A program made the position numbers and the translations under genes. The notes below the pieces were generated by a model. That model ran no database searches. It was not told the origin of the DNA and saw only the letters and a program-made list of their open reading frames with translations. DNA of 59,512 bases from Candidatus Eiseniibacteriota bacterium (lineage in GTDB: Bacteria > Eisenbacteria > RBG-16-71-46 > JABDJR01 > JAWXBZ01). The stretch spans positions 1 through 59,512 of the forward strand of contig JAWXBZ010000122.1 in the NCBI GenBank assembly GCA_034440375.1, read 5' to 3'. Shown here in pieces: positions 3,372 to 48,497 of the stretch. Position 1 is the stretch's first letter; each line of letters opens with the position of its first letter.

Positions 3372-3496
3372 GTCGATTCCGTCTTCAGTTGTCGCACTCC
3401 TGCTGGAAAATCAAGGCATCGGGCCGAGTCAGCCAGCGTAGCATGTCGTCCGGAATGGCGATCGGTCGTCTCGGGAGTTACGATCCCACGTGAGTT

Positions 3497-3526
3497 CTGG
3501 CCCAATTGTTGCAACAGCCATGCCCG
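3497..3526. promoter_or_regulatory. Overlapping divergent sigma54 (-24/-12) promoter pair
   Basis: Plus strand CTGGCCCAATTGTTGCA (GG 3499-3500, N10, GC 3511-3512). Minus strand GGGCATGGCTGTTGCA (GG 3524-3523, N10, GC 3512-3511). The core TGTTGCAACA is a perfect palindrome. Confidence 0.55.
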
Positions 3527-3553
3527 TGTCAAGGGGGTGTCAATCGGTGTCGA
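3526..3553 (+). repeat. Three direct repeats GTGTC(A/G)A at 11/10-bp spacing (OmpR/PhoB-like box, or TTGACA hexamers on the minus strand)
   Basis: GTGTCAA 3526-3532, GTGTCAA 3537-3543, GTGTCGA 3547-3553. Confidence 0.4.
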
Positions 3554-3632
3554 GTAGGCCAGTATGGTTTAGGATGGCGATTCGAAGTCTTTTAGATCGT
3601 CGGTTAGATTGTTCGCCACGGCAAAACCAAAC

Positions 3633-19117: not shown

Positions 19118-21355
19118 TCAGCGAACGAAAAGCATCTCCCGGTACTTGGGTAGTGGCCACGATCCGTCCTCAATGAGGTTTTCCAGCCGGTCGGCGCTGG
19201 TGCGAACGTCGGCCAGGAGCGTACGGACCTCGTCGGCCAGTCGACGCGCCTTCTTCGCCTCATCATGGATGCCTTCAACCTCTGCCAGTCGGCCACGGAG
19301 TTGCTCGGCCGCGGCCAGGATTTCCGAAAGGCCATCGCCGAGCGCCGACGCGCGACGGGAAAGCGCTTCGGAAGCGTTGCCGCTGGCCAGTGACACGCCC
19401 GCTGCCTTCAATTCGGCCCGGGCCTTGAGGGCCGCGGCTGTTACCACCATCTGACGCTCGGCGGCGGGGGCCACCAGGGTTTCGAGCATCTCCAGAACCG
19501 TCTCGGCCTCGAGCATGACCTGCTTGATGTAGCGCTCGAGAGCCACGTTCTCCCGGCTGGCAATCTCGTCCTTCGAAAAGATGCCGTGTTCCGTCAGGAA
19601 CCCCGAGTGTTTCCGGTCCGCGAAGGCTTCGATGGCTGCCGGCGTGTCGACCAGGTTCGGCAGGCCGCGCTTTTCGGCCTCCTTCCGCCACTCGTCACTG
19701 TAGTTGTTTCCTTCAAAGCGGATCGCGGCCGACTCCGTGAAAACTTCCCGAAGGAGTGCCAGCACCGCCTCGTCCCGCGCGGCCCCCGCGTCAATCCGCG
19801 CCCTGAGACGCGATGTCATCTGGCTCAGTGCGTCCGCCACCGCCGCGTTGAGCAGGGCCACAGGCACGGCGCAGTTGGCGCTGCTGCCGACCGCCCGGTA
19901 CTCGAATTTGTTGCCGGTGAAGGCGAACGGGCTCGTTCGATTGCGGTCGGTATTGTCGCGGGCCAGCTGCGGCAGCTTGGCCACGCCCATCTGCAGGACG
20001 AAATGCTCCGCATCCTCACCCGCCGAGCCCGACATGACCCGCTCGATGACCTTCGTCAGCTGATCGCCGACGAAGCACGAGAGAATGGCCGGTGGCGCCT
20101 CGTTGGCGCCGAGCCGCAGGTCGTTGGCCGCATTGGCGATCGAGTAGCGCAGCGCCACCGAGTGATCGTGAACCGCCTTGAGACACACCGCCAGAAATGC
20201 CAGGAAACGGAGATTCTGGTGCGGGGTGCGCCCCGGCTCGAGGAGGTTCTCACCCTTGTCGGTGGCCATGCTCCAGTTGCAGTGCTTGCCGCTGCCGTTG
20301 AGTCCGGCAAACGGTTTTTCATAGAAGATACAAACGAAGTCATGGCGCAGTGCCACCTTGCGGGCGATGTCCATGGCCAGTGCGTTGTGGTCGTTGGCCA
20401 GGTTCACTTCCTCGAAGATCGGCGCCATCTCGAACTGCATCGGCGCCACCTCGTTATGTCGCGTCCGGATGGGGATGCCGAGCCGGTGCGACTCAAACTC
20501 CATCTCCTCCATGAAGGCCAGGACCCGGCTCGGGATGGAGCCGAAGTAGTGGTCCTCGAACTGCTGCCCGCGGGGGGACGCCGCGCCAAGGAGCGTCCGT
20601 TCGGTCAGCATGAGATCGGGCCGCAGCGCGAAGTGCGTCCGGTCGATCAGGAAGTACTCCTGCTCGCAACCGAGCGTGGCCGTCACCGCGTGTACATCGA
20701 CATCGCCGAGCAGCTTGAGGAAGGCCGTGGCCTGTTTCGACAGGACCTCGAGGCTGCGAAGCAGCGGTGTCTTGTGATCCAGGCTGTCGCCGTAATAGCT
20801 GATGAAGACTGATGGGATGCAAAGCGTCATCCCGTTGGTGCTTTCCACCAGGAACATGGGCGAGGAGGGATCCCATGCCGTGTAGCCACGGGCCTCGAAC
20901 GTGGAGCGCATGCCGCCGGAGGGAAACGAGCTGGCATCGGGCTCGCTCTGGACCAGCTGGCTGCCCGAGAGTTTTTCCAGCACCTTGAGTTCGCCGGTCA
21001 TCGACACGTTCAGGTCGATGAAGCTGTCGTGCTTCTCGGCCGTCGAGCCGGTCATCGGCTGAAACCAGTGCGTGAAGTGAGTGGCGCCGTGCTGAATGGA
21101 CCAGTCCCGGGCCACCGAGGCGATGGTGTCGGCCACTTCCTTGGTCAGCGGCAGGCCATTCTTCAGCGTTCCGACCAGCCCGGAGTAGATCTCGCGCGGG
21201 AGTTTTTCCTTGAGCTTGATCAGGTCGAGGACATGCTCCCCGAAGTAGGCGCTGACCGGCGAGCGGCGGCCGTCGGGAAGTCGGGGGGGGTCGAAGACGC
21301 GCGGCTTTCGGGAATTTACCAGCAGGCGCGCTTCATCGCGGGGGGTGAAACTCAT
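19118..21355 (-). CDS. glnN: Glutamine synthetase type III
   Basis: HFTHWFQPMTGSTAEKHDSF, EPDASSFPSGGMRSTFEARGYTAWD, HNEVAPMQFE, KPFAGLNGSGKHCNWS, DRNRTSPFAFTGNKFEYR. Start reassigned to ATG 21355 (GGAGG RBS). Confidence 0.95.
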   Translation of the reverse strand: MSFTPRDEARLLVNSRKPRVFDPPRLPDGRRSPVSAYFGEHVLDLIKLKEKLPREIYSGLVGTLKNGLPLTKEVADTIASVARDWSIQHGATHFTHWFQPMTGSTAEKHDSFIDLNVSMTGELKVLEKLSGSQLVQSEPDASSFPSGGMRSTFEARGYTAWDPSSPMFLVESTNGMTLCIPSVFISYYGDSLDHKTPLLRSLEVLSKQATAFLKLLGDVDVHAVTATLGCEQEYFLIDRTHFALRPDLMLTERTLLGAASPRGQQFEDHYFGSIPSRVLAFMEEMEFESHRLGIPIRTRHNEVAPMQFEMAPIFEEVNLANDHNALAMDIARKVALRHDFVCIFYEKPFAGLNGSGKHCNWSMATDKGENLLEPGRTPHQNLRFLAFLAVCLKAVHDHSVALRYSIANAANDLRLGANEAPPAILSCFVGDQLTKVIERVMSGSAGEDAEHFVLQMGVAKLPQLARDNTDRNRTSPFAFTGNKFEYRAVGSSANCAVPVALLNAAVADALSQMTSRLRARIDAGAARDEAVLALLREVFTESAAIRFEGNNYSDEWRKEAEKRGLPNLVDTPAAIEAFADRKHSGFLTEHGIFSKDEIASRENVALERYIKQVMLEAETVLEMLETLVAPAAERQMVVTAAALKARAELKAAGVSLASGNASEALSRRASALGDGLSEILAAAEQLRGRLAEVEGIHDEAKKARRLADEVRTLLADVRTSADRLENLIEDGSWPLPKYREMLFVR

Positions 21356-21561
21356 CTTCAATATCCTCCGTGGCGACCACGACAAGCCAATACCTGCCGG
21401 AATCACTGGACAAGGGAACTCCGGCGAACAAACGCCCGCGCGGAATCCCCACGAAACGATGGAAAGGAGTATACCGCAGGGAGCCTGGAAGACCAGATTT
21501 CGATCGTAAACACATGCGAAAGAAACGCTTAGATGCCCGGGTCCACTCCTTTTGCCGCCTC

Positions 21562-21577
21562 GCAATCGGCCTGCCTG
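21562..21577 (-). promoter_or_regulatory. Possible sigma54 promoter for the GSIII gene
   Basis: AGGCAGGCCGATTGCG fits GG-N10-GC with TTGC but has two mismatches in the TGGCAC box. Confidence 0.3.
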
Positions 21578-21596
21578 ACACGTCCTTGGCCGGGGG

Positions 21597-21626
21597 TTGA
21601 TTCTTGCGCGCCCCTGCCGATAGACT
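21597..21626 (+). promoter_or_regulatory. Possible sigma70 promoter for the metal-efflux operon
   Basis: TTGATT-N18-TAGACT; the predicted +1 falls at or next to ATG 21634. Confidence 0.35.
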
Positions 21627-21633
21627 TGAAACA

Positions 21634-21948
21634 ATGAATCGAGTGTTTCGACGCATGACCATTCGCGGCCTGGCCAGGTCAATCCTTTTGGCCGGGATGC
21701 TGCTTGCCCTGCTCGTCGGATCTCATGTCCTCCCCGATCCGTGCCTGAGCCGTGGGGACGATTGCTGCTCCGCGCAGTCATCCACACACAGCTGCAATAC
21801 CCCCTGCTGCGCCGGCATGCAGGCAACGCCTGAAGTTGTCTTTCGACTCGATATGCCTGTCGGAGTTCAGATGGCTTTCGACCGCATTGTTTCCTCGCTT
21901 GACTTCACCCCTCCTGATCCGCTCGTCCGTCCCCCGATAGCGGCCTAA
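21634..21948 (+). CDS. Small Cys-rich exported/membrane protein leading the efflux operon
   Basis: Hydrophobic segment followed by DPCLSRGDDCC...HSCNTPCC; C-terminal RPPIAA resembles DUF2946-type leaders of metal transport operons. Confidence 0.55.
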   Translation: MNRVFRRMTIRGLARSILLAGMLLALLVGSHVLPDPCLSRGDDCCSAQSSTHSCNTPCCAGMQATPEVVFRLDMPVGVQMAFDRIVSSLDFTPPDPLVRPPIAA

Positions 21949-29472: not shown

Positions 29473-32400
29473 ATGACTCACGACCCGATTGCAACCGACG
29501 CGCCACGCGACGATGAGACAGCGCCTGCCGCGCCAATCGAGGCGACCCAGTCGTTGACTCGTCGCTTTCCCGCATGGCTGATACCCGCCGTGCTGGCCCT
29601 GGTCCTGGTCGCATTCCTCATCTGGGAGGCTCGGACCTCGCGGGTGCAGGCGGCCGTCCTCTCGCGCATGACGGCGAAGCTGACCTACGCCATGGCGCTC
29701 GGCCCGACAGATTCGGTCATTTATCCAACCACCGGGCCGTACGACCTTCGCCGCGGCTACACGAAAATTCCGTCGTTCACCGACACGCTCCTCACCCAGG
29801 GGTATGTGGTGACCGGCCAGGCCCGCTTCTCGCAAGATCTGCTCAAGTTCACGAATGCCGGCCTGTTCCCGATCTACCATGAGAAAGCCCAGGCCGGCCT
29901 CCTCGTTTACGATCGCGGTCGGCGTCGAATCTACGGCTCCTCCTACCCCGAGCGGCTCTATGCCGATTTCGGGGCCATCCCCGACCTCGTCGTGCAAAGC
30001 CTTCTCTTCATCGAGAACCGCGAGTTGCTCGAACCGGGACGGCCTTTCAAGAACCCGGCCGTGGAGTGGGATCGGCTGGTGCGGGCGGTCTTCGATTACG
30101 TGGGGCACAAGTTTCGCCTGAAGGAAGAATCACCGGGCGGCAGCACGCTGGCCACGCAGATGGAAAAGTATCGTCACTCTCCGGAGGGGCGCACCTCCTC
30201 GGCCAACGACAAGATCATCCAGATGATCAGCGCCACGCTGCGGGCCTACCTGGACGGTCCGAACACGGAAGCCTCGCGCCGGGACATCGTTCACGAATTC
30301 GTGAATTCGGTGCCACTGGCCGCGCTCCCGGGCTACGGCGAGGTCAACGGCCTCGGAGACGGCCTGTGGGCCTGGTACGGGGCCGACTTTGAAACGGTCA
30401 ACCGGTTGCTCACGGGGCTGTCGTCCGGCACCCCGGTCACGGCGGAGTCGGCACGAGCCTTCAAGCAAGTCCTGTCGCTGTTCATTGCCCACCGGCGCCC
30501 AAGTTATTACCTGATTCAGAATCGCGAACGATTGGCGCACGATACGGATTCCTACATCCGGCTGCTGGCATCCGGACAGCTTGTCCCGGCAGATCTGCTG
30601 CAGGCTGCACTCAAGGCCCCGCTCAAATTCCGCGAGGAAACGCCCGACCTCGAGAGCCACACATGGGTCCAGCGCAAGGCGGCCAATGCCGTGCGGACCC
30701 GACTGCTGCAACTTCTCAATCTCAAGAACCTCTATGACCTCGACCGCGTTGACCTGACTGCGGCCACGACGCTGGATGCCGGGGTGCAGGAGGGTGTGAC
30801 GCGCACCTTGATCCGCCTGACCGACGCCGCCTTTGCCGACTCGGCCAACCTGCGCGGTGAGCGACTGTTGGCCAGTGGGGATCCGAAGGGGGTCATCTAC
30901 AGTTTCACGCTGTATGAGAAGTCGCCGCGCGGCAATCGCCTCGTCGTCCAGGCCGACAACTATGACCAGCCGCTCGACATCAACGAAGGGGCCAAGCTGG
31001 ACCTCGGTTCGACGGCCAAGTTACGGACGCTGGTCAACTATCTCGACATCGTCAGCCAGATCCATGCCGATCACGCGGGCACGACGGCCACACGGCTTCG
31101 CCGGGTCACCGTCGACAAGCAGGACGCCATCCAGCGCTGGGCCATCGACTGGCTGGCCACCGCCGGGGACACGAGCCTCGCCGCCATGCTCGACGCAGCC
31201 ATGAATCGCACCTATTCGTCGTCAACCGGCGAGCAATTCTTCACCTCCGGCGGACTTCTTACTTTCGGCAATTTCAACAAGAGCGACAATGGCAAGACCA
31301 TGACGCTGCGCGAGGCAACACGGCATTCGGTGAACCTGGTCTATATCCGACTGATGCGCGACATCGTCCGGCACTACACGAGTGAAATTCCGGATTTCAC
31401 CTCCGACATGTACGAGGAGCGCACACATCCCGCGCGGCGCCGGTATCTCGAACGCTTTGCCGACCGGGAAGGGAAGCAATTCCTGGCCAAGTTCCTGCCG
31501 CGATATCGCGGCAAGACGCCCGAGGAAATCCTCGATCGCATGGTCGAGGAGATCCGGCCCACCGCCACCCGGATGGCCATGATTTTTCGCGCCGTGAAGC
31601 CGGAAGCCCCGGTCAGCGACTTCCGCGCGTGGGTCCTGCGCACCTGGCCCGAGGGCCTCGCCACGGCTCGCGGCGAGACCGCCCTGCGCGATGCCTTCCA
31701 ACGGTATCCGAAGACGGCCTTCGACATCCACGACCGCGGCTACATCGCCCGGGTCCATCCGCTGGAACTCTGGCTGGTCGAGTATCTCTACAACAATCCC
31801 GCCGCCGGGTGGACTGACCTGGTGGCCGCCAGCACGCAGGAGCGGCAGGACGTATACAAATGGCTCTTCAACTCGAAAAGCCTGGAGGGGCAGAACAACC
31901 GGATCCGCGTCCTGGTTGAGGAGGAGGCCTTTCAAAAGGTGCACCTGGCCTGGAAGCGGCAGGGCTACCCTTTTTCCAGCCTCGTGCCGTCCTACGCCAC
32001 GTCCATTGGCTCGTCCGCCGATCGACCCGCCGCGCTGACCGAACTGATGGGGATCCTGGTCAATGACGGCCTTCGCCTGCCGCTCACCCGAATCGAGGCC
32101 ATGCACCTGGCCGCCGGCACCCCGTATGAAATCCGTTACGAGCAACGTCCGGTGACGGGCGAGCGCGTTTACCCGGCCGAACTGGCCCGGGTCGTCCGCA
32201 CCGCGCTCTTCGATGTGGTCGAAAACGGAACCGCCCGCCGCGCGTACGGGGCGTTCAAGACAAAAGATGGTGAGATCATTCCCGTTGGCGGCAAGACCGG
32301 CACCGGCGACCACCGCTACGACACCTACGCCCCGGGCGGCCGCCTCATCGAATCCCGCGTCGTCAATCGCACCGCCACCTTCGTCTTTCTCATCGGCGAC

Positions 32401-32622
32401 CGCTTCTTCGGCACGCTGACCGCCTACGTGGCCGGCCCCAAGGCGGCGGGCTACGCGTTCACGAGCTCGCTGCCGGTACAGATCTTGAAGACGCTGGCAC
32501 CGGCACTTGAGCCGTTGATCACGGCGGGCAGCGGGGACAGCACGGGCACCGGGGACCCTGAGGCCGCCGGAAGCTCGCAGGCAATCCACCTGGTGCCGCC
32601 CATCGACGAAGCCGGGGAGTAG
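29473..32622 (+). CDS. Bifunctional transglycosylase/transpeptidase (class A PBP-like) with large insertions
   Basis: N-terminal TM anchor; GT51-like LFIEN and GGSTLATQ; transpeptidase motifs STAK, SVN, KTGT. Confidence 0.8.
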   Translation: MTHDPIATDAPRDDETAPAAPIEATQSLTRRFPAWLIPAVLALVLVAFLIWEARTSRVQAAVLSRMTAKLTYAMALGPTDSVIYPTTGPYDLRRGYTKIPSFTDTLLTQGYVVTGQARFSQDLLKFTNAGLFPIYHEKAQAGLLVYDRGRRRIYGSSYPERLYADFGAIPDLVVQSLLFIENRELLEPGRPFKNPAVEWDRLVRAVFDYVGHKFRLKEESPGGSTLATQMEKYRHSPEGRTSSANDKIIQMISATLRAYLDGPNTEASRRDIVHEFVNSVPLAALPGYGEVNGLGDGLWAWYGADFETVNRLLTGLSSGTPVTAESARAFKQVLSLFIAHRRPSYYLIQNRERLAHDTDSYIRLLASGQLVPADLLQAALKAPLKFREETPDLESHTWVQRKAANAVRTRLLQLLNLKNLYDLDRVDLTAATTLDAGVQEGVTRTLIRLTDAAFADSANLRGERLLASGDPKGVIYSFTLYEKSPRGNRLVVQADNYDQPLDINEGAKLDLGSTAKLRTLVNYLDIVSQIHADHAGTTATRLRRVTVDKQDAIQRWAIDWLATAGDTSLAAMLDAAMNRTYSSSTGEQFFTSGGLLTFGNFNKSDNGKTMTLREATRHSVNLVYIRLMRDIVRHYTSEIPDFTSDMYEERTHPARRRYLERFADREGKQFLAKFLPRYRGKTPEEILDRMVEEIRPTATRMAMIFRAVKPEAPVSDFRAWVLRTWPEGLATARGETALRDAFQRYPKTAFDIHDRGYIARVHPLELWLVEYLYNNPAAGWTDLVAASTQERQDVYKWLFNSKSLEGQNNRIRVLVEEEAFQKVHLAWKRQGYPFSSLVPSYATSIGSSADRPAALTELMGILVNDGLRLPLTRIEAMHLAAGTPYEIRYEQRPVTGERVYPAELARVVRTALFDVVENGTARRAYGAFKTKDGEIIPVGGKTGTGDHRYDTYAPGGRLIESRVVNRTATFVFLIGDRFFGTLTAYVAGPKAAGYAFTSSLPVQILKTLAPALEPLITAGSGDSTGTGDPEAAGSSQAIHLVPPIDEAGE

Positions 32623-32883
32623 TCGCTCCGCAAGACGAGTTCAGCGCCCTGACACCGGACCGACTCCCCGGGTCATCCCCCCCGAACTGGCTGCGCGAGA
32701 TCTCCCAAAAACAGCCCCCGGTGAGACGTATCCGCCGCCCGGCACCCGGCAAGGACCACCAGGCCTCACCCGGGTTGGCGATTCGAAATTCGCGGGCAGT
32801 CTCAAATCCAATCAACAGTTAGCGCCGTATCAACTGCGTGCGCGCGGCACCCGAACGGCCCGTCCATGGCACCCGATCGACCG

Positions 32884-32900
32884 CTGGCACAGCGATTGCG
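32884..32900 (+). promoter_or_regulatory. sigma54 -24/-12 promoter
   Basis: CTGGCACAGCGATTGCG, a near-perfect TGGCAC-N5-TTGC. Confidence 0.6.
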
Positions 32901-32910
32901 ATACCTGTCC

Positions 32911-33190
32911 TTCGTCCGGATGACTTAAGAAGTCGGAAGGACCTGTACTTGAGAACGAGACGATGTTCTCTGCAGTGACCGCCACCTGCGTTGTCGGCTG
33001 GTCCCCCATTAATGGATGGATTACAGCGCAGCGAAGGAACGGCGCAAGCGGAGAGCATCCTCATCTTAAGGCGCGGCCGTCGACCCACCGTTGACGCGCC
33101 CCCTGACCCGACGGTCGCGCCGCCATTTGCACCCCGCGTGATAGCCCGCCAACGAAGCGGTCGGACCTGTTTTCGGGTCCGACCGCTTCA
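32911..33190 (+). ncRNA. Candidate sigma54-dependent small RNA (or micro-ORF transcript)
   Basis: Lies between a consensus sigma54 promoter and a 14-bp hairpin; no convincing long ORF; internal stem-loops. Confidence 0.3.
33154..33189. terminator. 14-bp perfect hairpin, likely a (bidirectional) terminator
   Basis: GAAGCGGTCGGACC-N8-GGTCCGACCGCTTC, 43 nt beyond the aminotransferase stop. U-tracts are weak. Confidence 0.6.
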
Positions 33191-33232
33191 CTGTTCTTGG
33201 ATCTGCGCCACGACGGCTCCAGCCGCCAGCCC

Positions 33233-34531
33233 TTACCCCCGCGCTTCCCCCAGGACCTCGCGCAACCGTGGAAACAACCCGTCCAGGTCCGTCGGCGCCA
33301 GAGCGCCAACCGACAAACGGAACCAGCCGGACTCTTCCTTCAACCCGAATGCCTGGAACGGCACAATGGCCATGGCGGCTTTTTTGAGGAGGAACTGGCG
33401 GATCTGTTCATTGGTGTCCAGTCGGGTGCCCGCCAGCGTCTTGCCGATCAGGTCGATGCGGGCGGACAGGTAGATGGCACCCTGGGGAGCGATGCTTTCG
33501 ACGGGGTAGCCGTCGTTTCGCATCGCCTCGAATCCCTCGTGCAGCGTCACCAGGCGCTTTTCGATGCCGTGCTTCAGGCAGAGCGAATAGGCTTCGAGGT
33601 TGGCCGAGTCAGCCAGGAAGCGGGCGCAGGCAATCTGCTCCGGGCGCGGGGCCCAGGCGCCGACATGGCCCAGGATATCCGAGAACGGCTTCATTACTTT
33701 TTCCGGGCCGACACACCAGCCGACGCGAAGACCGGTGGCGGCGAAGGCCTTGGACATGCCGTCGGTAAAGAGGGTGTAGTCCCTCATGCGCGGATCGATG
33801 GCCACGGGCGTGATGTGCGTCGTCGTGCCGAAGGTCAGCATCCAGTACACCTGATCGTACAGCAGCATGAGCGGGCGCTGGCCGGCCGCAGCGCGGCGGC
33901 CGTTCTCGTCCAGGATCATCTCGACGATCTTCCGCAACTCGTCCTCGGTGAACGCGGTGCCGGCCGGGTTGAGCGGGCTGTTGAGAATCAGCACGCGCGT
34001 CCCGGCGAGATGCGGTTTGAGATCACCGGCAGTTGGCAGAAAATTGGTTTCGCGCCGGGCGATGATCGGTTGCCCCCTGGCGCCGACAAGCCAGGCGTAG
34101 TGATTGTTGTTCCAGGACGGCACCGGATAGGCCAGCGTTTCGCCGGGATCGAGGAGCGTCCGGTAGGCGCAGTAGATGACCGGGCGAACACCGCCGGCTA
34201 TGACGACACTGGCGGTGGAGTAATCGAGGCCGAGTCGCTCGGCGTAGAAATTCCGCACCGCCTGGCGCAGTTCCGGCACGCCGTCCGACGGGGGGTAGTT
34301 CGTCTCCCCCTTGTCGTAGGCCTCGGCAATCCCCTGCTTCAGGACGCCGGGAATGCTGAAGACCGACGGCTTGAAATCGCCCACCGTCAGATTGACCACC
34401 GCTTCGCCGGCAGCAATCCGGGCCCGGATGTCGGCGGCAATCTTCAGTATTTCCGAACCGACGAGGCCATTGGCCATGGCGGAAACCGGCAAGTCGGTGG
34501 CGGCACCTGGAATCGTGGTCGGTTCAGTCAT
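33233..34531 (-). CDS. PLP-dependent aminotransferase class I/II
   Basis: NLTVGDF, YPPSDGVPELR, NSPLNPAG, YDQVY, DGMSKAFAATGLRVGW. Start reassigned to ATG 34531 (GGAG RBS). Confidence 0.9.
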   Translation of the reverse strand: MTEPTTIPGAATDLPVSAMANGLVGSEILKIAADIRARIAAGEAVVNLTVGDFKPSVFSIPGVLKQGIAEAYDKGETNYPPSDGVPELRQAVRNFYAERLGLDYSTASVVIAGGVRPVIYCAYRTLLDPGETLAYPVPSWNNNHYAWLVGARGQPIIARRETNFLPTAGDLKPHLAGTRVLILNSPLNPAGTAFTEDELRKIVEMILDENGRRAAAGQRPLMLLYDQVYWMLTFGTTTHITPVAIDPRMRDYTLFTDGMSKAFAATGLRVGWCVGPEKVMKPFSDILGHVGAWAPRPEQIACARFLADSANLEAYSLCLKHGIEKRLVTLHEGFEAMRNDGYPVESIAPQGAIYLSARIDLIGKTLAGTRLDTNEQIRQFLLKKAAMAIVPFQAFGLKEESGWFRLSVGALAPTDLDGLFPRLREVLGEARG

Positions 34532-34636
34532 GACATCTCCAGTGGTGAAATTCGGCGGGGGGAGAATAGCAGAAACAGCGCCCCTGGCCGGGGTGTCTGA
34601 CAAGCTTCGACATCTCTGCTATTTTCCACATCGACC

Positions 34637-35179
34637 ATGAAACGATCCCCTCTTCCTGCGATTGGCCTGGCGCTGGTGATGTTGGCATCGGGCTGCTCCG
34701 GCTCGAGCCAGAAAGACAGGCCACGCCCGTCCGCCGGGGTCGGCGGCGCCAGCACGGCCAGCAGCGCCGGGGTCGGCGGCGCCGACAGCGCCGTGCCGGC
34801 AAACGCCCCCGCCTATCGCCTCCGCTGCAGCGAGGGGGGTGGATTCACCGGTCAATGGACCGGTTTCGTCCTCGAAGCCGACGGCCGCGTGGCCACCTGG
34901 CATGGTCGCGACGCCGAATCCTCATCAGGAACCCCCATCGGAACCGCCACGACCAAAGAGCAGAACCGACTCTGGTCGGCACTGGAAAAGGCCGGTTTCT
35001 TCACCCGCGACGTAAACGAACCGGGAAACATGACGCGATCTGTGCGTGTCGAAGCCGCCGCCGACACTTCGATTTGGAGCTGGAGTCTGAAACCGGAACC
35101 TGACAGCACGGGCCGGTCCACCGTTTGGAATGCCTGCCAGGATCTCGTCCGGCAGGTCAAGGCCAGGGAGGAACGATGA
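34637..35179 (+). CDS. Lipoprotein of unknown function, possibly an emfourin-like M4 protease inhibitor
   Basis: Lipobox LASGC, Ser/Ala/Gly linker, then LRCSEGGGFTG; its stop overlaps the ATG of the M4 peptidase. Confidence 0.65.
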   Translation: MKRSPLPAIGLALVMLASGCSGSSQKDRPRPSAGVGGASTASSAGVGGADSAVPANAPAYRLRCSEGGGFTGQWTGFVLEADGRVATWHGRDAESSSGTPIGTATTKEQNRLWSALEKAGFFTRDVNEPGNMTRSVRVEAAADTSIWSWSLKPEPDSTGRSTVWNACQDLVRQVKAREER

Positions 35180-38100
35180 GTCGTCGGGACGGTTTCGCAT
35201 CGATCAACGGATTGGCCGCTACTTTCCTGATCGCCTTGCTGGCCGCGCCAACACTGGCCGCCATTCCGGTCAATAACCCGGCCACATTCGTGAAGCCGGT
35301 CGTGGCACCCTCGAACCTGACGCCGGCCTCCTCCGGCCGCGGTGCCACCCTCAACAAGAAGCCGACAGCACAAACGGCCGTTTCGATGCGCGGGCCGCTC
35401 CGGGGGTTCTCCCGACTTCCGGTTGCCCTCGCGACCCCGGCCGCCGTGCGTCTGGCGGCACTGCGCGCGGCAAACGGCAACGACCTTCGTTTCGTCGCGG
35501 ATGACGCGGGTGAAACCGTCCGCTTTCTGGCCGGGCCGAATCTCGAGCCGGGCGGATCATCACGGTTGTCCGCACCCCGCCTGGAAGCGGAATTCGAGTC
35601 GCGAGCGCTTTCGTTTCTGGCCGATAATGCGACACTCGTGGCGATCGACAATCCAGCGGACGAACTGACGATGAATCGCGTCGAGTCCGATCGCGACGGT
35701 TTTCATGCCGTGCGCTTCCGGCAGACCTGGCGCCGGAACGAGATATGGGGGAACGATCTGATCGTTCGGTTTGATCCGGCCGGCCGCGTGATCGGGATGT
35801 CGGGGCACTACCGCGCCACACCGAAGGGTCTCATTCCGAACGCGCAACTGGATGAATCGGCGGCGACGGGCTCGGCCCGTGCGCATGTCCTTGGGCAGCA
35901 CGGGCGGACACCGACCTCGTCATCGGCCACCCCGGTCTGGTTCGACGCGCCCGGCGGTCTTCGTCCAGCCTTTGCCGTCATCGTGGAAGCCGGCCTCGAC
36001 TGTCGCCGCGAACTGCTCGTCGACGCGCTGACCGGCCGGATCCAGAAGGATCTCTCGCTGGTCCAGACCGACGGAGCGGTGCTCGGATCGGGGCCCGACT
36101 TGACCAACACCAACCGGACACTCGGCCTCTACCAGATCGGCTCGAGCTTCCTCATGACCGATACCCGAAAGGACATGTTCAGCCAGCCGTTGAGCCAGTT
36201 TCCCAACAAGCCAAGCGGCACCATCACGCTGATCAACGCCACGAATGGCATGGGCGACAACCTGACGCATGTCACGTCGTCGAACACAGCGAGCTGGAAC
36301 AGCTTCAGGAACGCGGTCAGCGGCGCCCACTTTGCCGGACAGGTGTACGACTACTACCGCACGCGTCACGACCGGCAGAGCATCGATGGGAAAAAGGGAA
36401 CGATGTGGCTGGTCGTCAACTTCCAGAACAACTTCAACAACGCCTTCTGGAACGGACAGTTCATGGTCTTCGGCAACGGCGACGGCAATGACTTCAGCGA
36501 TCTGGCCGGCTCGCTGGACGTGACGGCGCACGAGATGAGCCACGGCGTCATCGAAAACACCGCCGGGCTTGTCTACGAATTTCAGTCCGGCGCCCTCAAC
36601 GAGCATTTCGCGGACGCGTTCGGCGCGGCCACCGAGTTTTTCGCGAGGCCGGGCAGCGCCAACTGGCTGCTGGGTGAGGATGTCACGACCCCCGGTATCG
36701 CCGGCGACGCGCTGCGCAACATGGAAAACCCGGGAGCGGCCAACGTGGCCTTTGGGGGCCAGCAGCCGACGCACATGAGCGAATTCCGAAATCTGACGTC
36801 CAGTCAGGACAACGGGGGCGTGCACATCAACAGCGGCATCCCGAACCGGGCGTTTTTCCTGACTGCGACCACCCTGGATGTCGGGCGCGGTGAACGGATC
36901 TGGTACCGGGCGCTCAGCCAATATCTCATGAGAAACTCGCAGTTTGTCGACTTTCGCCGCGGCTGCATTCAGGCCGCCACCGATCTCTTCGGCGGCGGCT
37001 CGACCGAGGTAACCGCGGTGACCAACGCCATGAACACCGTCGGAATCGTGGACGGCTCGGCCACACCGGCACCGCCGCCGTCACCCGACAACGTCGGCAA
37101 CGACCTCCTGGCGGTGGTCGACCCGGTCAGTGATCACATCCTTTCGGTGGATCCGGATTTCTCCTCGCCAAGCGTGGACATCTCCGGTATCGCCATCGGA
37201 GCCGGGGGCCGCCCGACCTTCAGCGACAACGGAAGCCTGATGGCATTCGTCGGCGCCAATGGCAACATCTACGCGAGGACGATGAACGGTGCCGTTCAGG
37301 CTTTGACCGACGAGGGAGGATGGTGGAGCGTGGCCCTTTCCCCCGACGGCACCGACCTCGCGGCCACGACCGTCGCGGAGGACGGACGGATCTACGTCTT
37401 CGATCTGACCTCGAGCGCTTCGGGCTTTTATGAGCTGACCAGGCAGAATTCCACGCCGGGTGCGGTGGCCGACCAGGTGGTTTTCGCGGACGTTCTCGAG
37501 TGGACGCTCGACGGCCAGTTTCTCGTGTACGACGCGCTGAACCGGTCGAGCCTCGGCGGCCAGAGCTTTGAGTACTGGGACATCAACCTGCTCCGCCTCT
37601 CGGACGGCGAGTGCTTTCGTGTCTTCCAGACCCTGCCGCAGGGAGAGAGCGTCGGCAATCCAACGCTGGCCCAGAACAGCGATGGCAAGATCGCCTTCGA
37701 CTACGTCAGCAACGACGGTAACACCTATGTCATCGGCTACGAGTTTCAGACTGGCGCCAGCGGCACGATCACCAACAATCTGCAGTCGCTCGGCCGCCCG
37801 ACCTTCTCGGGCGACGACCGGCAGGTCTTCTACCAGTACATCAATTCGCAGGCGTTCATCTACCTGGTGACGCTCGAAGCCGACGGCGTCACGGGCAGCG
37901 GAAATGACGTCATCTGGGCCACGGACGGCTATGCGCCGGTCTGGTACACCGTCGGCACCCGCCCGACGCCGGTCACCCTGCTGGCCTTTGACCTGGCCTG
38001 GACCAACGGCGATATCCGTGTGAACTGGCAGGTCGGCGATCCCGACCAGGCGATCGGTTTCCGGCTGTCGAGTGCGACTTCGGAGGAGGGAGCCTTTGAT

Positions 38101-38562
38101 CCCTCCGGCGGACTCATTCCGATGTCCGAAGGGATCGACGGGCGGTTCGAACACCGGCTGCCGGCGCCCGTCGGCACGGACCGAATCTGGGTGCGGCTCG
38201 AGGAAGTCGGTCGGGACGGCTCGGTGGCGGAAGTGATCCGGCGGGAAATCCGGCGCCCGCCGGTCGATGCCAGACGGCTTCAACTCCTGCCGGCCCGGCC
38301 GAATCCGGTCGTCAGCGAAACACAGATCGCCTTCGTCGTACCGGAATCAGGCACGGGTTGGCCCGTTAGCCTGACTATTTTCGACGCCGCGGGGCGCCGC
38401 GTGGCAAGCCTCCTCGATAATGCAAACCTGCCGCCCGGCGAAAATATTGCGGCCTGGACCGCGACGGACGACCGGGGCCAACCGGTTCCGGTGGGTGTCT
38501 ACTACGCACGCCTGGAAGTGGCCGGAGAGCGCGTGTCCCGCAACATTGTCGTGGCGCGGTAG
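35176..38562 (+). CDS. M4 (thermolysin-family) metallopeptidase with FTP/PepSY propeptide, beta-propeller and FlgD-Ig/Por-tail-like C-terminus
   Basis: NNAFWNG, AHEMSHG (HExxH), GALNEHFAD, DNGGVHINSGIPN; GGAGG RBS; C-terminal RPNP...FDAAGRRV...GVYYARL. Confidence 0.9.
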   Translation: MSRRDGFASINGLAATFLIALLAAPTLAAIPVNNPATFVKPVVAPSNLTPASSGRGATLNKKPTAQTAVSMRGPLRGFSRLPVALATPAAVRLAALRAANGNDLRFVADDAGETVRFLAGPNLEPGGSSRLSAPRLEAEFESRALSFLADNATLVAIDNPADELTMNRVESDRDGFHAVRFRQTWRRNEIWGNDLIVRFDPAGRVIGMSGHYRATPKGLIPNAQLDESAATGSARAHVLGQHGRTPTSSSATPVWFDAPGGLRPAFAVIVEAGLDCRRELLVDALTGRIQKDLSLVQTDGAVLGSGPDLTNTNRTLGLYQIGSSFLMTDTRKDMFSQPLSQFPNKPSGTITLINATNGMGDNLTHVTSSNTASWNSFRNAVSGAHFAGQVYDYYRTRHDRQSIDGKKGTMWLVVNFQNNFNNAFWNGQFMVFGNGDGNDFSDLAGSLDVTAHEMSHGVIENTAGLVYEFQSGALNEHFADAFGAATEFFARPGSANWLLGEDVTTPGIAGDALRNMENPGAANVAFGGQQPTHMSEFRNLTSSQDNGGVHINSGIPNRAFFLTATTLDVGRGERIWYRALSQYLMRNSQFVDFRRGCIQAATDLFGGGSTEVTAVTNAMNTVGIVDGSATPAPPPSPDNVGNDLLAVVDPVSDHILSVDPDFSSPSVDISGIAIGAGGRPTFSDNGSLMAFVGANGNIYARTMNGAVQALTDEGGWWSVALSPDGTDLAATTVAEDGRIYVFDLTSSASGFYELTRQNSTPGAVADQVVFADVLEWTLDGQFLVYDALNRSSLGGQSFEYWDINLLRLSDGECFRVFQTLPQGESVGNPTLAQNSDGKIAFDYVSNDGNTYVIGYEFQTGASGTITNNLQSLGRPTFSGDDRQVFYQYINSQAFIYLVTLEADGVTGSGNDVIWATDGYAPVWYTVGTRPTPVTLLAFDLAWTNGDIRVNWQVGDPDQAIGFRLSSATSEEGAFDPSGGLIPMSEGIDGRFEHRLPAPVGTDRIWVRLEEVGRDGSVAEVIRREIRRPPVDARRLQLLPARPNPVVSETQIAFVVPESGTGWPVSLTIFDAAGRRVASLLDNANLPPGENIAAWTATDDRGQPVPVGVYYARLEVAGERVSRNIVVAR

Positions 38563-42246: not shown

Positions 42247-44370
42247 ATGAATCGGCTCATCCGGCTCGGGCTTCCGGCCCTGGCGGGTGCGCTGACGATT
42301 TCCATTCCGGATGCGTTTCCGGCGGCACCATCAACCCGTGTTCGCATCAACCAGCACGGCTACGCGCCCGCCGAGACCAAGTGGGTGGCGGTGGCACTGG
42401 CTTCGGGAACGCCGGCCATTTTCGAGATCCGTCGCCGGAACGACGACTCCCTGGTCCTGTCCGGTGCCCTGACTCTAAGGCGCAGCGCCGATCCCGGAAG
42501 CGGCGATAATGTGTACCAGGGATTGTTCAGTTCGCTTGCGGCAATCGGCGAGTATGTCGTGCGGGTGCCCGGCGTGGGCGATTCGCACCCCTTCCAGGTG
42601 CACGGCGCCGTGTACGACGACCTTTACCGAAAACTGCTGAAAGGGCTCTATTACCAGCGCTGCGGCACCGCCATCGATGTAGCGCATGGTGGAGATTGGA
42701 CGCACGAGGCCTGTCATGACGAGGCGGGCGGCATGGCCTCGTACGACTGGGCCACCACCGGCGGGGCGCCGGGCGGCTACCGCAATACCATCGGCGGGTG
42801 GCACGACGCCGGCGACTACGGCAAGTACAGCACGAACAACGCCTATGCCGTGGGCGTGCTGCTGCAGGCCTACGACCATTTCCCCTCGCGCTATCCGCAT
42901 GACGATGCCGGCATCCCGGAAAGTGGAAACGGCGTGCCGGACCTGCTGGACGAAGCGCGATGGTCGCTCCAGTGGATGCAGAAGATGCAGCTGGCCAACG
43001 GTTCGGTGCTCCACCGGGAATCCGTCGCCAGCTATGCCGGCGAGTTCCTGCCGGAAGCCGAGCCGACCACGCGTTACTACACGTCGATTTCGAGTGATGC
43101 CACGGCCGTCCATTGCGCGGCAATGGCCCTGGCGGCACGGGTGTATGCCGGGGTCGATCCGACATTCGCGGCGACCTGTTCCACCAGTGCCGTGAATGCA
43201 TGGAACTGGCTGCAGAGCAATCCGGGCCGGGTGCCGGTCGCTGGATTTGCCAACCAGTTTGGCCATACCGGTGCCACGTATATCGCCGGAAACGAACTCG
43301 GGCGACGCCTCTGGGCCGCGGCCGAGCTTTATCGATTGAACGGGAGCGCGGCGGCGAAGAGCTGGTTCGATGCGCGCTGGGGGGACGGCCTCACGTTCAA
43401 CGGTGTCTGGTACCCCGATGGCTGGGGCGATCTGGCCAACATGGGGGCCTTCGCCTATCGCGATGCGCCGGGCGCGACGGCTGGAATCAAATCGGGCAAC
43501 TGGTGGAGCATCGAGAACTCGACGCTCTCCTCCGTGGGCGGCTGGAACACGCGCGTGGGGCAGGACGGCTACGGCTGCGTGGCCTCGACCACGCCACCTT
43601 CCGGCGATTACTACTGGGGATTCACCGGCGTCCTGCTCCGCTACGCCTGGACCATGATCCAGGCCGACCGCTATACACCAAACAGTGCCTGGGTACAGTC
43701 CGCCCGCGAGCAGTTGCACTACATCCTTGGCCGGAACCCGGTGGACCAGGTATACGTGACCGGCCTCGGCGAGCGGCCCGTGCTCCACAGCCATGGCGCG
43801 TGGAACCTGGCCGCCGGCTACGTGAATGTGGACGACGCCCTCTGTCGCCCCATTCCCAATCTTCTCGTCGGCGGCGCCAACAAGGCCGACAACTCCGCCA
43901 TCAGCCCCTACCCGGGCAAATGCTACGAGGACATCGCCGACCCGAACTATTTCAACAAGGGAAACTACACGCTCAACGAAACGGCCGTGAATATCCAGGC
44001 CTCGCTGATCGTACTGGCCGGCTATTTCAGTTCAGGGAATACCGTTTCAGGTGTTGATGATCCGGACATCGAGCCGGCACCGGCGGCGCGGGTCGCGACG
44101 ATCAGCGCCAGCCCGAACCCGTTCGTCGAGGGGACGACCTTGACGTTGGCCTCCGGGGCGCCCCTGTCGGGCGACGTGATGATCCTCGACGCGGCCGGGC
44201 GGCGCGTGGCGCGACTGGCCGTCCGCGCGATTCCGGGCGCCAAATCGATGGAGGTCCGCTGGGACGGCCTGGGTACGGACGGCCAGCCGGTGGCGCCGGG
44301 CGTCTACTGGGCGCGGGTAGCCGGCCAGGGTGAGTCGCGGGCGCGGCAACTGGTTCGGATTCGTCGGTAG
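42247..44370 (+). CDS. Glycoside hydrolase family 9 (N-terminal Ig) with FlgD-Ig/Por-tail-like C-terminus
   Basis: VRINQHGY, GGWHDAGDYGKY, PDLLDEARW, LHYILGRNP, NYTLNETAVN; GGAGG RBS. Confidence 0.9.
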   Translation: MNRLIRLGLPALAGALTISIPDAFPAAPSTRVRINQHGYAPAETKWVAVALASGTPAIFEIRRRNDDSLVLSGALTLRRSADPGSGDNVYQGLFSSLAAIGEYVVRVPGVGDSHPFQVHGAVYDDLYRKLLKGLYYQRCGTAIDVAHGGDWTHEACHDEAGGMASYDWATTGGAPGGYRNTIGGWHDAGDYGKYSTNNAYAVGVLLQAYDHFPSRYPHDDAGIPESGNGVPDLLDEARWSLQWMQKMQLANGSVLHRESVASYAGEFLPEAEPTTRYYTSISSDATAVHCAAMALAARVYAGVDPTFAATCSTSAVNAWNWLQSNPGRVPVAGFANQFGHTGATYIAGNELGRRLWAAAELYRLNGSAAAKSWFDARWGDGLTFNGVWYPDGWGDLANMGAFAYRDAPGATAGIKSGNWWSIENSTLSSVGGWNTRVGQDGYGCVASTTPPSGDYYWGFTGVLLRYAWTMIQADRYTPNSAWVQSAREQLHYILGRNPVDQVYVTGLGERPVLHSHGAWNLAAGYVNVDDALCRPIPNLLVGGANKADNSAISPYPGKCYEDIADPNYFNKGNYTLNETAVNIQASLIVLAGYFSSGNTVSGVDDPDIEPAPAARVATISASPNPFVEGTTLTLASGAPLSGDVMILDAAGRRVARLAVRAIPGAKSMEVRWDGLGTDGQPVAPGVYWARVAGQGESRARQLVRIRR

Positions 44371-46754: not shown

Positions 46755-48269
46755 CTACCGCGTCAGGAGCAGCTTGCCGGTTCGAACCTGTCCGGCGAAC
46801 TCGAGCCGGCTGAAATAGAGACCCGCGGCGGCCGCATGACCGTCATCGTCGTTGCCATTCCAGAAGATGGCATGATCACCCGCCGGAAAGGGCGTGGCGA
46901 CGAGTGTCGTCACCCGGCGACCCGCGGCATCGTGAATTGTGAGAAGGACCCGCCCGCCCTCCGGCTGGCTCCAGGACAGGCGCGTGGCGGACGCAAAGGG
47001 ATTCGGCTGGTTCGGGCGGAGCGACAACGCCGGCCGACCCGCATCGAGATCGTCGCCGGGAACGCCGGTCTGCGACGCGGTGATCCCAAGCGGCAGGCTG
47101 GCCGAGTTGTTGGCCATGTTCGGATCGTACTCACCGGCCTGGGCATCGACCGGAACGACCAGCACACCCGCCGCGCCGGCGAGCAGCGTGATCTCGACGA
47201 CATCGGAGGCGCCCAAAGCGAGCGTCGGCACCGTGCGGGTGATCGTGTTTCCGACACCGCTCACCGTTGCCGAGGCCGATTGAAACGTGAGGCCGGCCGG
47301 CAGGGGATTTGAGATGGTGAGATTCGTGACGTTGGAGGCACCGGTGTTGGTGGTGGTCATCGTGAATGTCCAGGTCTGGCCCGACTCCACGGTGGCCATC
47401 GTGGCCGACAGCACGACCGCCACATCGGCGCTGGCATTCAATAGGATCTGATCGCTCTGCGCATAGACGGTCGCGCCGTTCCTGATCTCGGCGTTGACCG
47501 TCTTCGTGCCGTTGGCCGCCGAGAGAACCCAGCTCTGATTGGCACTGAACGTCGTCCAGGCGGACCAGGCGCCCTCCTCGTTGCGGAAACGCATCTCCTG
47601 GGCCCAGCCGGTGCCATAGACGTACAGATCAACGGTCGAGTTGGTGACCTGGAAGGCCTCCCGGTTGATGACGACCGGATACACGGAATTCTTCCGGCCG
47701 AAGTTCTGCGTCCAGTAACGGCTGTACGGCCCGCCGGGGGTGCCATCCGCCGTGCAATCGCCGTTCGCATCCCCCCGCACGTTGCTCTGGTCGCCGCTCT
47801 GCAGGTAGTAGCCGATGCCGATCTCCCGGTAATTCACGGAGAGCAGATTGGCCCGGTGTCCCGTGGAGTTCATCCAGCCGGTCATGACGGCCGCGGGGGT
47901 CGAGTAGCCGGCGGCAATATTCTCGGCGGCGGAGTTCCAGCCGGTGTAACCGGCGGCGGTCATCCGATCCCACGGCCTGGTGCCGGTGTCGAGATCGCAG
48001 TGAGCGAAGAAGTTCCGCACGGCCATGTTGGTGCTGTGCGTGGTCGAGGAACTGTTGAGGAAGTCGTTGCGCTTGAGGGGTGGCAGCTGGCCGTTGGTCC
48101 AGCGCTCCTGATTCACGATCTGCATGACCTGGTCTTCGTAGGTCGGGCTCTGCGCCGAGGCGACGGAGACCACGGACCAGCCCAGGAGCACGAACGCGGC
48201 GGTTAACCGGGCGGCGCCCGGCTGGATGATTCCGAAAGTGCGGTGTCGTGGGTGGTGGTGACGAATCAT
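46755..48269 (-). CDS. CAP/SCP domain protein with DUF11-like and FlgD-Ig/Por-tail-like domains
   Basis: HSTNMAVRNFFAH, AENIAAG, WMNSTGHRANLL, YWTQNFG; GGAG RBS; C-terminal QPNPF...GLYFSRL. Confidence 0.85.
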   Translation of the reverse strand: MIRHHHPRHRTFGIIQPGAARLTAAFVLLGWSVVSVASAQSPTYEDQVMQIVNQERWTNGQLPPLKRNDFLNSSSTTHSTNMAVRNFFAHCDLDTGTRPWDRMTAAGYTGWNSAAENIAAGYSTPAAVMTGWMNSTGHRANLLSVNYREIGIGYYLQSGDQSNVRGDANGDCTADGTPGGPYSRYWTQNFGRKNSVYPVVINREAFQVTNSTVDLYVYGTGWAQEMRFRNEEGAWSAWTTFSANQSWVLSAANGTKTVNAEIRNGATVYAQSDQILLNASADVAVVLSATMATVESGQTWTFTMTTTNTGASNVTNLTISNPLPAGLTFQSASATVSGVGNTITRTVPTLALGASDVVEITLLAGAAGVLVVPVDAQAGEYDPNMANNSASLPLGITASQTGVPGDDLDAGRPALSLRPNQPNPFASATRLSWSQPEGGRVLLTIHDAAGRRVTTLVATPFPAGDHAIFWNGNDDDGHAAAAGLYFSRLEFAGQVRTGKLLLTR

Positions 48270-48497
48270 GACCAACATCTCCCGGAAGCGCGGCGTGTGG
48301 GACAACCTGGTTCACTTTGCTCGGTCACAGGAGATATCGGAGTGGGCCACTCGGAGCTTAAGAGCTTTCGCTGCGTATGGAATGCGTGAGGAGCGTCAGA
48401 TTACCCAGTTGGGGCGATTTGACTCAGGGATGATCGGCGTCGTTCTTCATGGCGCGGGTCATGGCGGCAGAGTAGCAGTTTTTCGACGGCGCGCAAG

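Follow-up and report, generated by a model that had tools for sequence, protein, structure and literature searches.

A single-copy structured RNA behind a predicted sigma-54 promoter in an uncultured Eisenbacteria lineage: a candidate new small RNA

The stretch of DNA considered here (the window) comprises 59,512 nt of contig JAWXBZ010000122.1 from a Candidatus Eiseniibacteriota bacterium (assembly GCA_034440375.1). Within it a 610-nt spacer (32623-33232) between two convergent genes, one for a class A penicillin-binding protein (PBP)-like enzyme and one for a class I/II aminotransferase, holds a candidate gene for a structured small RNA (sRNA) behind a sigma-54 type promoter (Table 1). The GC content is 58% at 32800-33100 as compared with 64-71% in the surroundings. 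The nearest database relatives of the aminotransferase stem from uncultured "Eisenbacteria"/Gemmatimonadota-type metagenome-assembled genomes (64-68% amino acid identity), the metagenome contig L081 encodes an aminotransferase with 86% amino acid identity to that of the window, and DNA of the window was detected in microbial-mat metagenomes. A first-pass annotation, made from the sequence alone, had proposed that a regulatory RNA of approximately 280 nt without an open reading frame (ORF) follows the promoter; the fold, the conservation, contigs from RNA data, covariation in the 5' hairpin and the broken ORFs of relatives agree with this proposal, the regulatory role itself being presumptive.

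Table 1. Features of the spacer 32623-33232 and its flanks, and the genes bordering a second spacer discussed in the text (positions in the window; an empty strand cell means that no strand is given)
Feature	Position	Strand	Remark
Class A PBP-like gene with transglycosylase and transpeptidase domains	29473-32622	+	left neighbour
Candidate upstream activator site (bacterial enhancer-binding protein, bEBP) GGCGATTCGAAATTCGC	32777-32793		centred ~125 nt before predicted start; putative function
Integration host factor (IHF)-like site AATCAACAGTTAG	32810-32822		putative; one mismatch to WATCAANNNNTTR; unchanged in variants
Second IHF-like site TATCAACTGCGTG	32828-32840		altered at 32830 and 32832 in variants
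Two direct repeats GGCACCCGA-CG-CC	32846-60, 32868-82		between IHF-like site and promoter
Sigma-54 type -24/-12 promoter TGGCACAGCGATTGC, TGGCAC-N5-TTGC	32885-32899	+	predicted start ~32911
Predicted RNA gene	32911-33197	+	~285 nt to terminator; conserved part ends near 33147
5' hairpin P1, GUCC/GGAC around UGACUU-AAG-AAGUCG, with GGA/GAA internal loop	32914-32942	+	fold prediction
Rod-like hairpin, ~41 pairs, apical loop UUAA at 33009-33012	32957-33063	+	fold prediction, ~107 nt
43-aa micro-ORF	32963-33094	+	from the ORF list
17-aa micro-ORF MDYSAAKERRKRRASSS	from 33016	+	from the ORF list
3' domain, 13-bp helix (33070-82 with 33109-21) closing a 26-nt loop	33070-33121	+	loop part 33096-33108 variable
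Mostly unpaired, conserved tail GCCAUUUGCACCCCGCGUGAUAGCCC	33122-33147	+	candidate interaction region; presumed role
Intrinsic-terminator-like hairpin, 16 pairs (14-16 bp), loop UUUU, T-rich tail	33154-33189	+	terminator and repeat scans
Class I/II aminotransferase gene	33233-34603	-	right neighbour, convergent
HEAT/TLC-like gene	615-3371		flanks spacer 3372-3608; divergent from next
Omp85-like gene	3609-5015		flanks spacer 3372-3608; divergent from previous

The promoter element is present exactly as the first-pass annotation had read it and is the sole exact TGGCAC-N5-TTGC in the window; mononucleotide shuffles yield 0.12 exact matches per window, and at least one is found in 12% of the shuffles. 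Together with its neighbouring letters (CTGGCACAGCGATTGCG, 32884-32900) it satisfies YTGGCACGrNNNTTGCW, with GG at -24, GC at -12 and exact spacing. The +1 position predicted from it (32911) lies 3 nt before the conserved 5' hairpin (32914). No sigma-70-like site was found in 32000-34000 in a scan with an E. coli-type consensus, which may not fit this phylum. According to the difference lists the promoter is unchanged in the variants X12 and X14, and in close variants the 66 nt leading up to the start show no change and the spacer further upstream drifts. On these sequence grounds we think that the RNA is probably made from an enhancer-dependent sigma-54 promoter; the dependence is put as a probability because rpoN and the activator gene were searchable within the window only.

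The first-pass annotation had also seen an imperfect palindrome about 100 bp upstream and two near-IHF sites between it and the promoter. The palindrome is there (GCGATTCGAAATTCGC, 32778-32793) and is unchanged in variants, but it is weak, is not among the repeats listed by the repeat search and lies approximately 125 nt upstream. Both IHF-like sites are also there, judged by WATCAANNNNTTR, which we take to be the IHF consensus; the first stood up in the variants, the second did not. The overlapping candidate activator site GGCGATTCGAAATTCGC is the same in X12, X14 and X16, and the adjacent positions 32770, 32773, 32775 and 32795 change; at a background divergence of about 10% the conservation of this site and of the first IHF-like site (at about -95) is not significant by itself. 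The two direct repeats, 22 nt apart and located directly before the promoter, resemble a -24 box; they show no listed change in close variants, and A32849C is found in one near-identical soil strain.

The left part of the palindrome, the 11-mer GGCGATTCGAA, has one other exact copy in the window (3576-3586) and occurs once in 1.36 Mb of related loci. This second copy lies in the spacer 3372-3608, which is flanked by divergent genes (Table 1) and also carries the overlapping sigma-54-like elements CTGGCCCAATTGTTGCA (3497-3513, plus strand) and CGGGCATGGCTGTTGCA (3526-3510, minus strand). The recurrence of the 11-mer near sigma-54-like elements hints that it may be part of a shared activator site.

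Variant sequences from relatives were rebuilt from difference tables and fall into type B (X12, X14, X24), type C (X20, X21, X27, X28), type D (X22, X23, X26) and type E (X16). Type B has no listed difference in 32845-32926, which includes the GGCAC repeats, the promoter and the start, and the 219 nt of 32929-33147 contain 6 substitutions and 4 indels of one base. In the upstream spacer (32700-32844) approximately 12 changes are listed for X12, X16 has 19 in 183 nt, and pieces of the aminotransferase gene of a close variant differ by 21/164 and 18/108. In close relatives 32845-33147 is thus nearly unchanged as compared with a 10-17% difference in the upstream spacer and the flanking genes. Since the RNA region is better conserved than its surroundings, purifying selection covers both promoter and RNA and is stronger than in the adjoining coding DNA. 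The core is retained at 90-97% identity in types C, D and E, which were sampled from soil, wastewater, pond, lake and sediment. Where their unaligned flanks can be read (30 letters), they are diverged forms of the 5' hairpin and 3' loop found in the window. Because these flanks are not foreign, the contigs resemble orthologous loci more than mobile-element copies.

Metatranscriptome runs of three separate studies (sediment, freshwater and lake water), one run per study, contain one short contig each (176, 176 and 227 nt), matching 32953-33091, 32951-33103 and 32931-33142 at 93-97% identity. With their unaligned end letters these contigs span approximately 32923-33150 only and do not enter the flanks, and no RNA contig lies over 32623-32920. 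Similarly, none of six short type C and D contigs, three of them from RNA runs and three from runs labelled "DNA?", extends upstream of approximately 32910. The short contigs begin at the equivalent of approximately 32910 (X26) and 32918 (X27), these being limits of assembled contigs and not mapped 5' ends. A pond run labelled "DNA?" has a 151-nt contig (X28) with a word depth of 33.9, which matches 32953-33091 and is confined to the RNA core; this depth is odd for genomic DNA and suggests that the run contains RNA or amplified material.

The plus strand of 32909-33196 folds to -130 kcal/mol with z = -5.5, and 0 of 200 shuffles are as good; the fold of the minus strand has z = -2.2. At the 5' end the sequences that the first-pass annotation had paired (CCTTC/GAAGG enclosing GACTT/AAGTC) are present, and so is its second hairpin (GAGAAC/GTTCTC, 32951-56/32965-70). 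U32912G in X26 would disrupt the CCUUC/GAAGG pairing, an alternative to the outer GUCC/GGAC helix of P1, which is kept via G-U pairs upon A32941G and C32942U. In the variants P1 reads GACU-GAAG-AGUC, GACC-GGGA-GGUC, GACC-GAAA-GGUC and GAC-GCGA-GUC. At its fourth pair the window, X26 and X24 have U-A, and X27, X18 and X20 have C-G, so that one pair is altered on both sides, in three of the 7 sequences. In P1 94% of the cells are paired; the slid controls have 20-40%, and a value of 94% was reached by 11 of 500 shuffles.

The rod fold is identical in every rebuilt variant and is also predicted by RNAalifold. Here 99.3% of the cells are paired, the two broken ones being due to A33035C and A33030T, and five pairs vary one-sidedly, all in a pairing-compatible manner. 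Seven of eight transitions at paired positions retain the pair on the plus strand, and the four transitions from Watson-Crick to wobble all yield G-U on this strand. In the 3' domain the arms are invariant, with indels and substitutions concentrated at 33096-33108. The tail is retained in X12, X14, X24 (with one 1-nt deletion), X20 and X23, and portions of it have a high unpaired probability. Indels sit where the model is unpaired, namely in the linker between P1 and rod (32944-32952), in a bulge (33047-33049) and in the loop 33096-33108. Six or more G-U pairs are invariant, and the opposite strand would have A-C mismatches in their place; the P1 loops GAAA, GGGA and GCGA of relatives are GNRA tetraloops on the plus strand only. 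Fold asymmetry, invariant G-U pairs and GNRA loops point, within the folding model, to an RNA encoded on the plus strand.

The 14-bp terminal hairpin of the first-pass annotation is found at 33154-33189, with a T-rich tail after it, and the RNA contig X23 extends to approximately 33150. The conserved RNA would be about 237 nt long (32911-33147), and in this strain the RNA probably continues to the terminator, which would give approximately 285 nt.

The region is present in one copy. In the mat runs two contigs, one of 4.8 kb and one of 12.4 kb, pass through the locus at an even depth (7.1 and 29.1, respectively) without extra pieces; no second copy of the RNA region was found in the window or in 160 loci (1.36 Mb), and no similar sequence in plasmids, phages and viral contigs. 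With Rfam 15 there was no match at gathering thresholds in the whole window, and the best sub-threshold matches in the region (E ≤ 10), P17 with 18.8 bits (threshold 45) and Xoo2 with 14.1 bits (threshold 45), align to the terminator hairpin only; a tRNA/tmRNA scan found none. We regard the single-copy structured RNA on the plus strand as a genuine new sRNA candidate: the evidence for its existence is good, that for its promoter class is reasonable, and it would be classed most suitably as a new sRNA family outside any Rfam family.

Observed directly were the presence of the region, its conservation, its single copy, its lack of coding capacity, its potential for structure and its occurrence in RNA data. 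Taken with these observations, the best explanation of the whole, and in our judgement a fairly probable one, is a sigma-54-driven, activator-dependent, trans-acting structured RNA, for which we infer sigma-54 dependence, exact ends and mode of action. Sigma-54 RNA polymerase would bind to the -24/-12 element at 32885-32899 and an ATP-dependent activator further upstream, for which GGCGATTCGAAATTCGC at about -125 is the candidate site; DNA bending at the IHF-like site possibly assists the activator. Transcription would begin near 32911 and yield a transcript composed of a 5' GNRA-type hairpin, the approximately 107-nt rod, the 3' helix-loop domain, a single-stranded tail and, in this strain, a terminator near 33190. 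The RNA would be made only under the signal of the activator and would then act in trans as a regulator.

Several observations weigh against this explanation. The window was scanned for motifs of RpoN, bEBP, CsrA, Hfq and IHF/HU, and no genes for rpoN, an activator (GAFTGA), IHF, Hfq or CsrA were found in the 59.5 kb. Conservation of the promoter is seen in very close relatives only, changes near contig ends are unlisted in the tables from which the variants were rebuilt, and the second IHF-like site varies. The contigs from RNA data are assembled, unstranded and of low depth, may contain DNA, and show presence rather than ends or direction. The rod has no double compensatory change and no formal covariation among the rebuilt variants, the sequences being too similar and the shuffle control uninformative. 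In type B the terminator is missing: the 86-nt segment 33148-33233 is precisely absent from X12, X14 and X24, and 33147 is followed at once by the aminotransferase stop codon, which becomes TAG. Both of the nearest relatives sequenced are without the RNA at this position: L001, the only syntenic one, has the same convergent genes with a 33-nt spacer (7267-7299), and L081 is the closest, its spacer (5103-5147) being bordered by the convergent gene of a TPR protein. No homologous spacer was found with blastn and nhmmer in the 160 loci (80 genome and 80 metagenome loci) that were reached via the aminotransferase. The spacers of L001 and L081 being short, the RNA is lineage-restricted at this position, either by acquisition here or by loss elsewhere. 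Finally, the RNA has no identified target or partner; blastn of the RNA region against the window gave no long complementary stretch, and no systematic target search was made.

The RNA could be real and the sigma-54 match incidental, with transcription from another, unmodelled promoter type or with processing from a longer transcript. That about 12% of shuffled windows contain an exact match speaks for this reading, as do the sigma-54 machinery not seen in the window, the promoter conservation known from near relatives only and the E. coli-type consensus of the sigma-70 scan, from which the housekeeping promoter of the phylum may differ. We nevertheless hold it to be unlikely: the promoter is intergenic and correctly oriented, its +1 lies three nt before a conserved hairpin, the 66 nt leading up to the start do not vary in a spacer that drifts upstream, 32623-32920 is without an RNA contig, and other spacers of the window carry sigma-54-like elements, one of them beside the same 11-mer. 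Quite improbable is an action in cis on the convergent aminotransferase gene, either as antisense RNA or by transcriptional interference at its 3' end, to which the RNA structure would be secondary. It would fit the RNA sequence of X12, X14 and X24, which adjoins the aminotransferase stop codon with no terminator between, but in this strain a strong terminator precedes the gene, RNA contigs end by approximately 33150, diverged homologues (X16 and others) retain the core, the aminotransferase genes of L081 and L001 are without an adjoining core, and it is the whole folded core that is under purifying selection. The titration of CsrA by a CsrB/RsmZ-like sponge, which the first-pass annotation had drawn from several GGA motifs, is very improbable. 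The motifs are there, with 8 GGA observed versus 4.6 expected (P = 0.06) and 4 ANGGA versus 0.84 expected (P = 0.01) in approximately 287 nt, of which only the ANGGA enrichment is significant. The sole fully unpaired GGA (32918-20) lies in the internal loop of P1, where it is kept in three variants, but none is in a hairpin loop, A33038C removes one GGA in one variant, and there is neither a match to the CsrB, RsmY and RsmZ models nor csrA in the window.

That the spacer contains a repeated or mobile palindromic element (a MITE, REP or ERIC-like element, MITE standing for miniature inverted-repeat transposable element) or a DNA-level element, the short contigs being assembly breaks or DNA carry-over, is highly unlikely. 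In its favour are an extended, imperfect inverted repeat that lies in the spacer of a convergent gene pair, the absence of this spacer from the same gene pair in L001 and short contigs confined to the element, one at a depth of 34 in a run labelled "DNA?". The two long mat contigs, however, cross it at flat depth with no piled-up pieces, neither the window nor the 1.36 Mb of loci has a second copy, there is no plasmid, phage or viral match, the readable flanks of the variants (30 letters per loose end) are those of diverged homologues and not new contexts, and strand-specific G-U pairs and GNRA loops are properties of RNA. Hardly to be credited is a small-protein gene. Both the 43-aa ORF and the 17-aa ORF exist, and the first-pass annotation was right that the region has only such micro-ORFs. 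But in type D G33001A creates a stop at codon 13 of the 43-aa ORF (after 12 codons), both frames are shifted in types C, D and E by one nucleotide inserted after 33047 or 33049, and the substitutions over the 43-aa ORF (6/5/4 at codon positions 1/2/3) have no third-position bias. With six-frame translations as queries no homologous protein or called ORF was found among 5.8 billion proteins. The reading frames being broken in relatives, the region is not protein-coding.

How the sigma-54-driven, trans-acting RNA would work is suggested by the pattern of its conservation. Two candidate classes were rejected: the CsrA-type GGA sponge, its GGA being few, mostly base-paired, absent from hairpin loops and without an Rfam model match; and a 6S-like RNA, as in both the minimum free energy and the centroid structure the 5' hairpin is local, the rod is internal and has loops of only 1-3 nt, and the two ends do not pair with each other. 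Because the long duplex strands, the linker UUAA (33066-33069) and the tail 33122-33147 are near-invariant and there is no good GGA-loop or seed pattern, we favour protein binding or processing of the rod over base pairing by a short seed.

The setting of the RNA gene offers some further observations. A perfect 9-bp inverted repeat, CCGGGGAGT/ACTCCCCGG (32612-32620/32663-32671), spans the region of the PBP stop codon and may be a 3' structure of the PBP gene; its surroundings vary among relatives. At the other end of this gene a sigma-54-like element (GTGGCGCGTCGGTTGCA, 29506-29490, minus strand) lies ahead of an amino-acid permease gene, the ORF of which as listed (to 29614) overlaps the start of the PBP ORF (29473); one start codon of this pair is probably mis-set. 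The window also encodes a type III glutamine synthetase (19118-21826). The aminotransferase, the permease with its own sigma-54-like element and the glutamine synthetase suggest a nitrogen-related neighbourhood, a hint at the inducing signal and no proof of it. Farther away, a FlgD-Ig-like domain ends three secreted-enzyme-like proteins, an M4 thermolysin-like peptidase (35125-38562), a GH9 cellulase (42247-44370) and a CAP/DUF11 protein (46755-48305), and may be a C-terminal sorting or anchoring domain typical of the lineage. A very large ORF (2181 aa) is located at 12086-18631 on the minus strand.

A bolder reading, possible but in our view doubtful, is that the RNA would be the first member of a new rod-shaped RNA family that is abundantly expressed, almost invariant, controlled by a dedicated sigma-54 activator and acts by capturing a protein. 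Were it true, a lineage of uncultivated Eisenbacteria/Gemmatimonadota-like bacteria in mats, sediments, soils, ponds and wastewater would have a new RNA-protein regulatory pair with a logic comparable to that of GlmY-RapZ or 6S-RNA polymerase, and the same activator might control the operons beside the second GGCGATTCGAA site (3576-3586). The finding alone does not answer a long-standing question. It combines a clean promoter architecture, evidence for expression in the environment and an unusually strong sequence constraint, and it offers an RNA family for Rfam, a handle on the sigma-54 regulon of the lineage and a candidate marker transcript for metatranscriptomes.

GlmY, CrcZ, Qrr and NrsZ are sigma-54-dependent key switches for metabolism and behaviour; the candidate RNA is similar to them in logic but belongs to none of their families. 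GlmY of Enterobacteria (approximately 150-200 nt) is transcribed by sigma-54 RNA polymerase with GlrR and IHF and is a decoy of RapZ, binding the protein rather than acting via a seed. Like GlmY, the RNA described here is a stand-alone structured sRNA with a predicted enhancer-dependent sigma-54 promoter and putative upstream activator and IHF sites; unlike it, it does not match the Rfam GlmY/GlmZ models, it has one long rod instead of three stem-loops and it comes from a different phylum. GlmY has its partners in RapZ and GlmZ, and none is known for the RNA of the window. In Pseudomonas CrcZ/CrcY, made by sigma-54 with CbrB, is a sponge for Hfq/Crc, and NrsZ is made by sigma-54 with NtrC, both being induced by signals. 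With these RNAs it shares the location in a spacer, the lack of coding capacity, an intrinsic terminator and a predicted sigma-54 promoter, and differs in having no A-rich CA motifs, modular repeats or Rfam match; its upstream site GGCGATTCGAAATTCGC is presumably also unlike the CbrB and NtrC consensus. In Vibrio Qrr1-5 are made by sigma-54 with LuxO and act by Hfq-dependent base pairing. There, too, the sigma-54 promoter stands directly before an ORF-less small RNA, but a Qrr of approximately 100 nt has four short stem-loops, a single-stranded seed and paralogues, whereas the RNA of the window is approximately 240-285 nt long, rod-like and present in single copy. LuxO and Qrr are covered elsewhere (PMC4878744; PMC11407668).

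Several GGA/ANGGA motifs in a non-coding RNA are shared with CsrB, RsmY and RsmZ; the window RNA has, in distinction, only a few such motifs, most of them in base pairs and all of them outside hairpin loops, and no match to the models. With 6S RNA the differences are the lack of a large central bubble and of an Rfam 6S match, 5' and 3' ends that do not pair with each other and the internal position of the rod; common to both are high conservation, a largely double-stranded structure, a length of approximately 200 nt and occurrence in metatranscriptomes. To our knowledge all sigma-54-dependent sRNAs studied are from Proteobacteria, and the RNA of the window would be a sigma-54 sRNA in a phylum without a cultured model.

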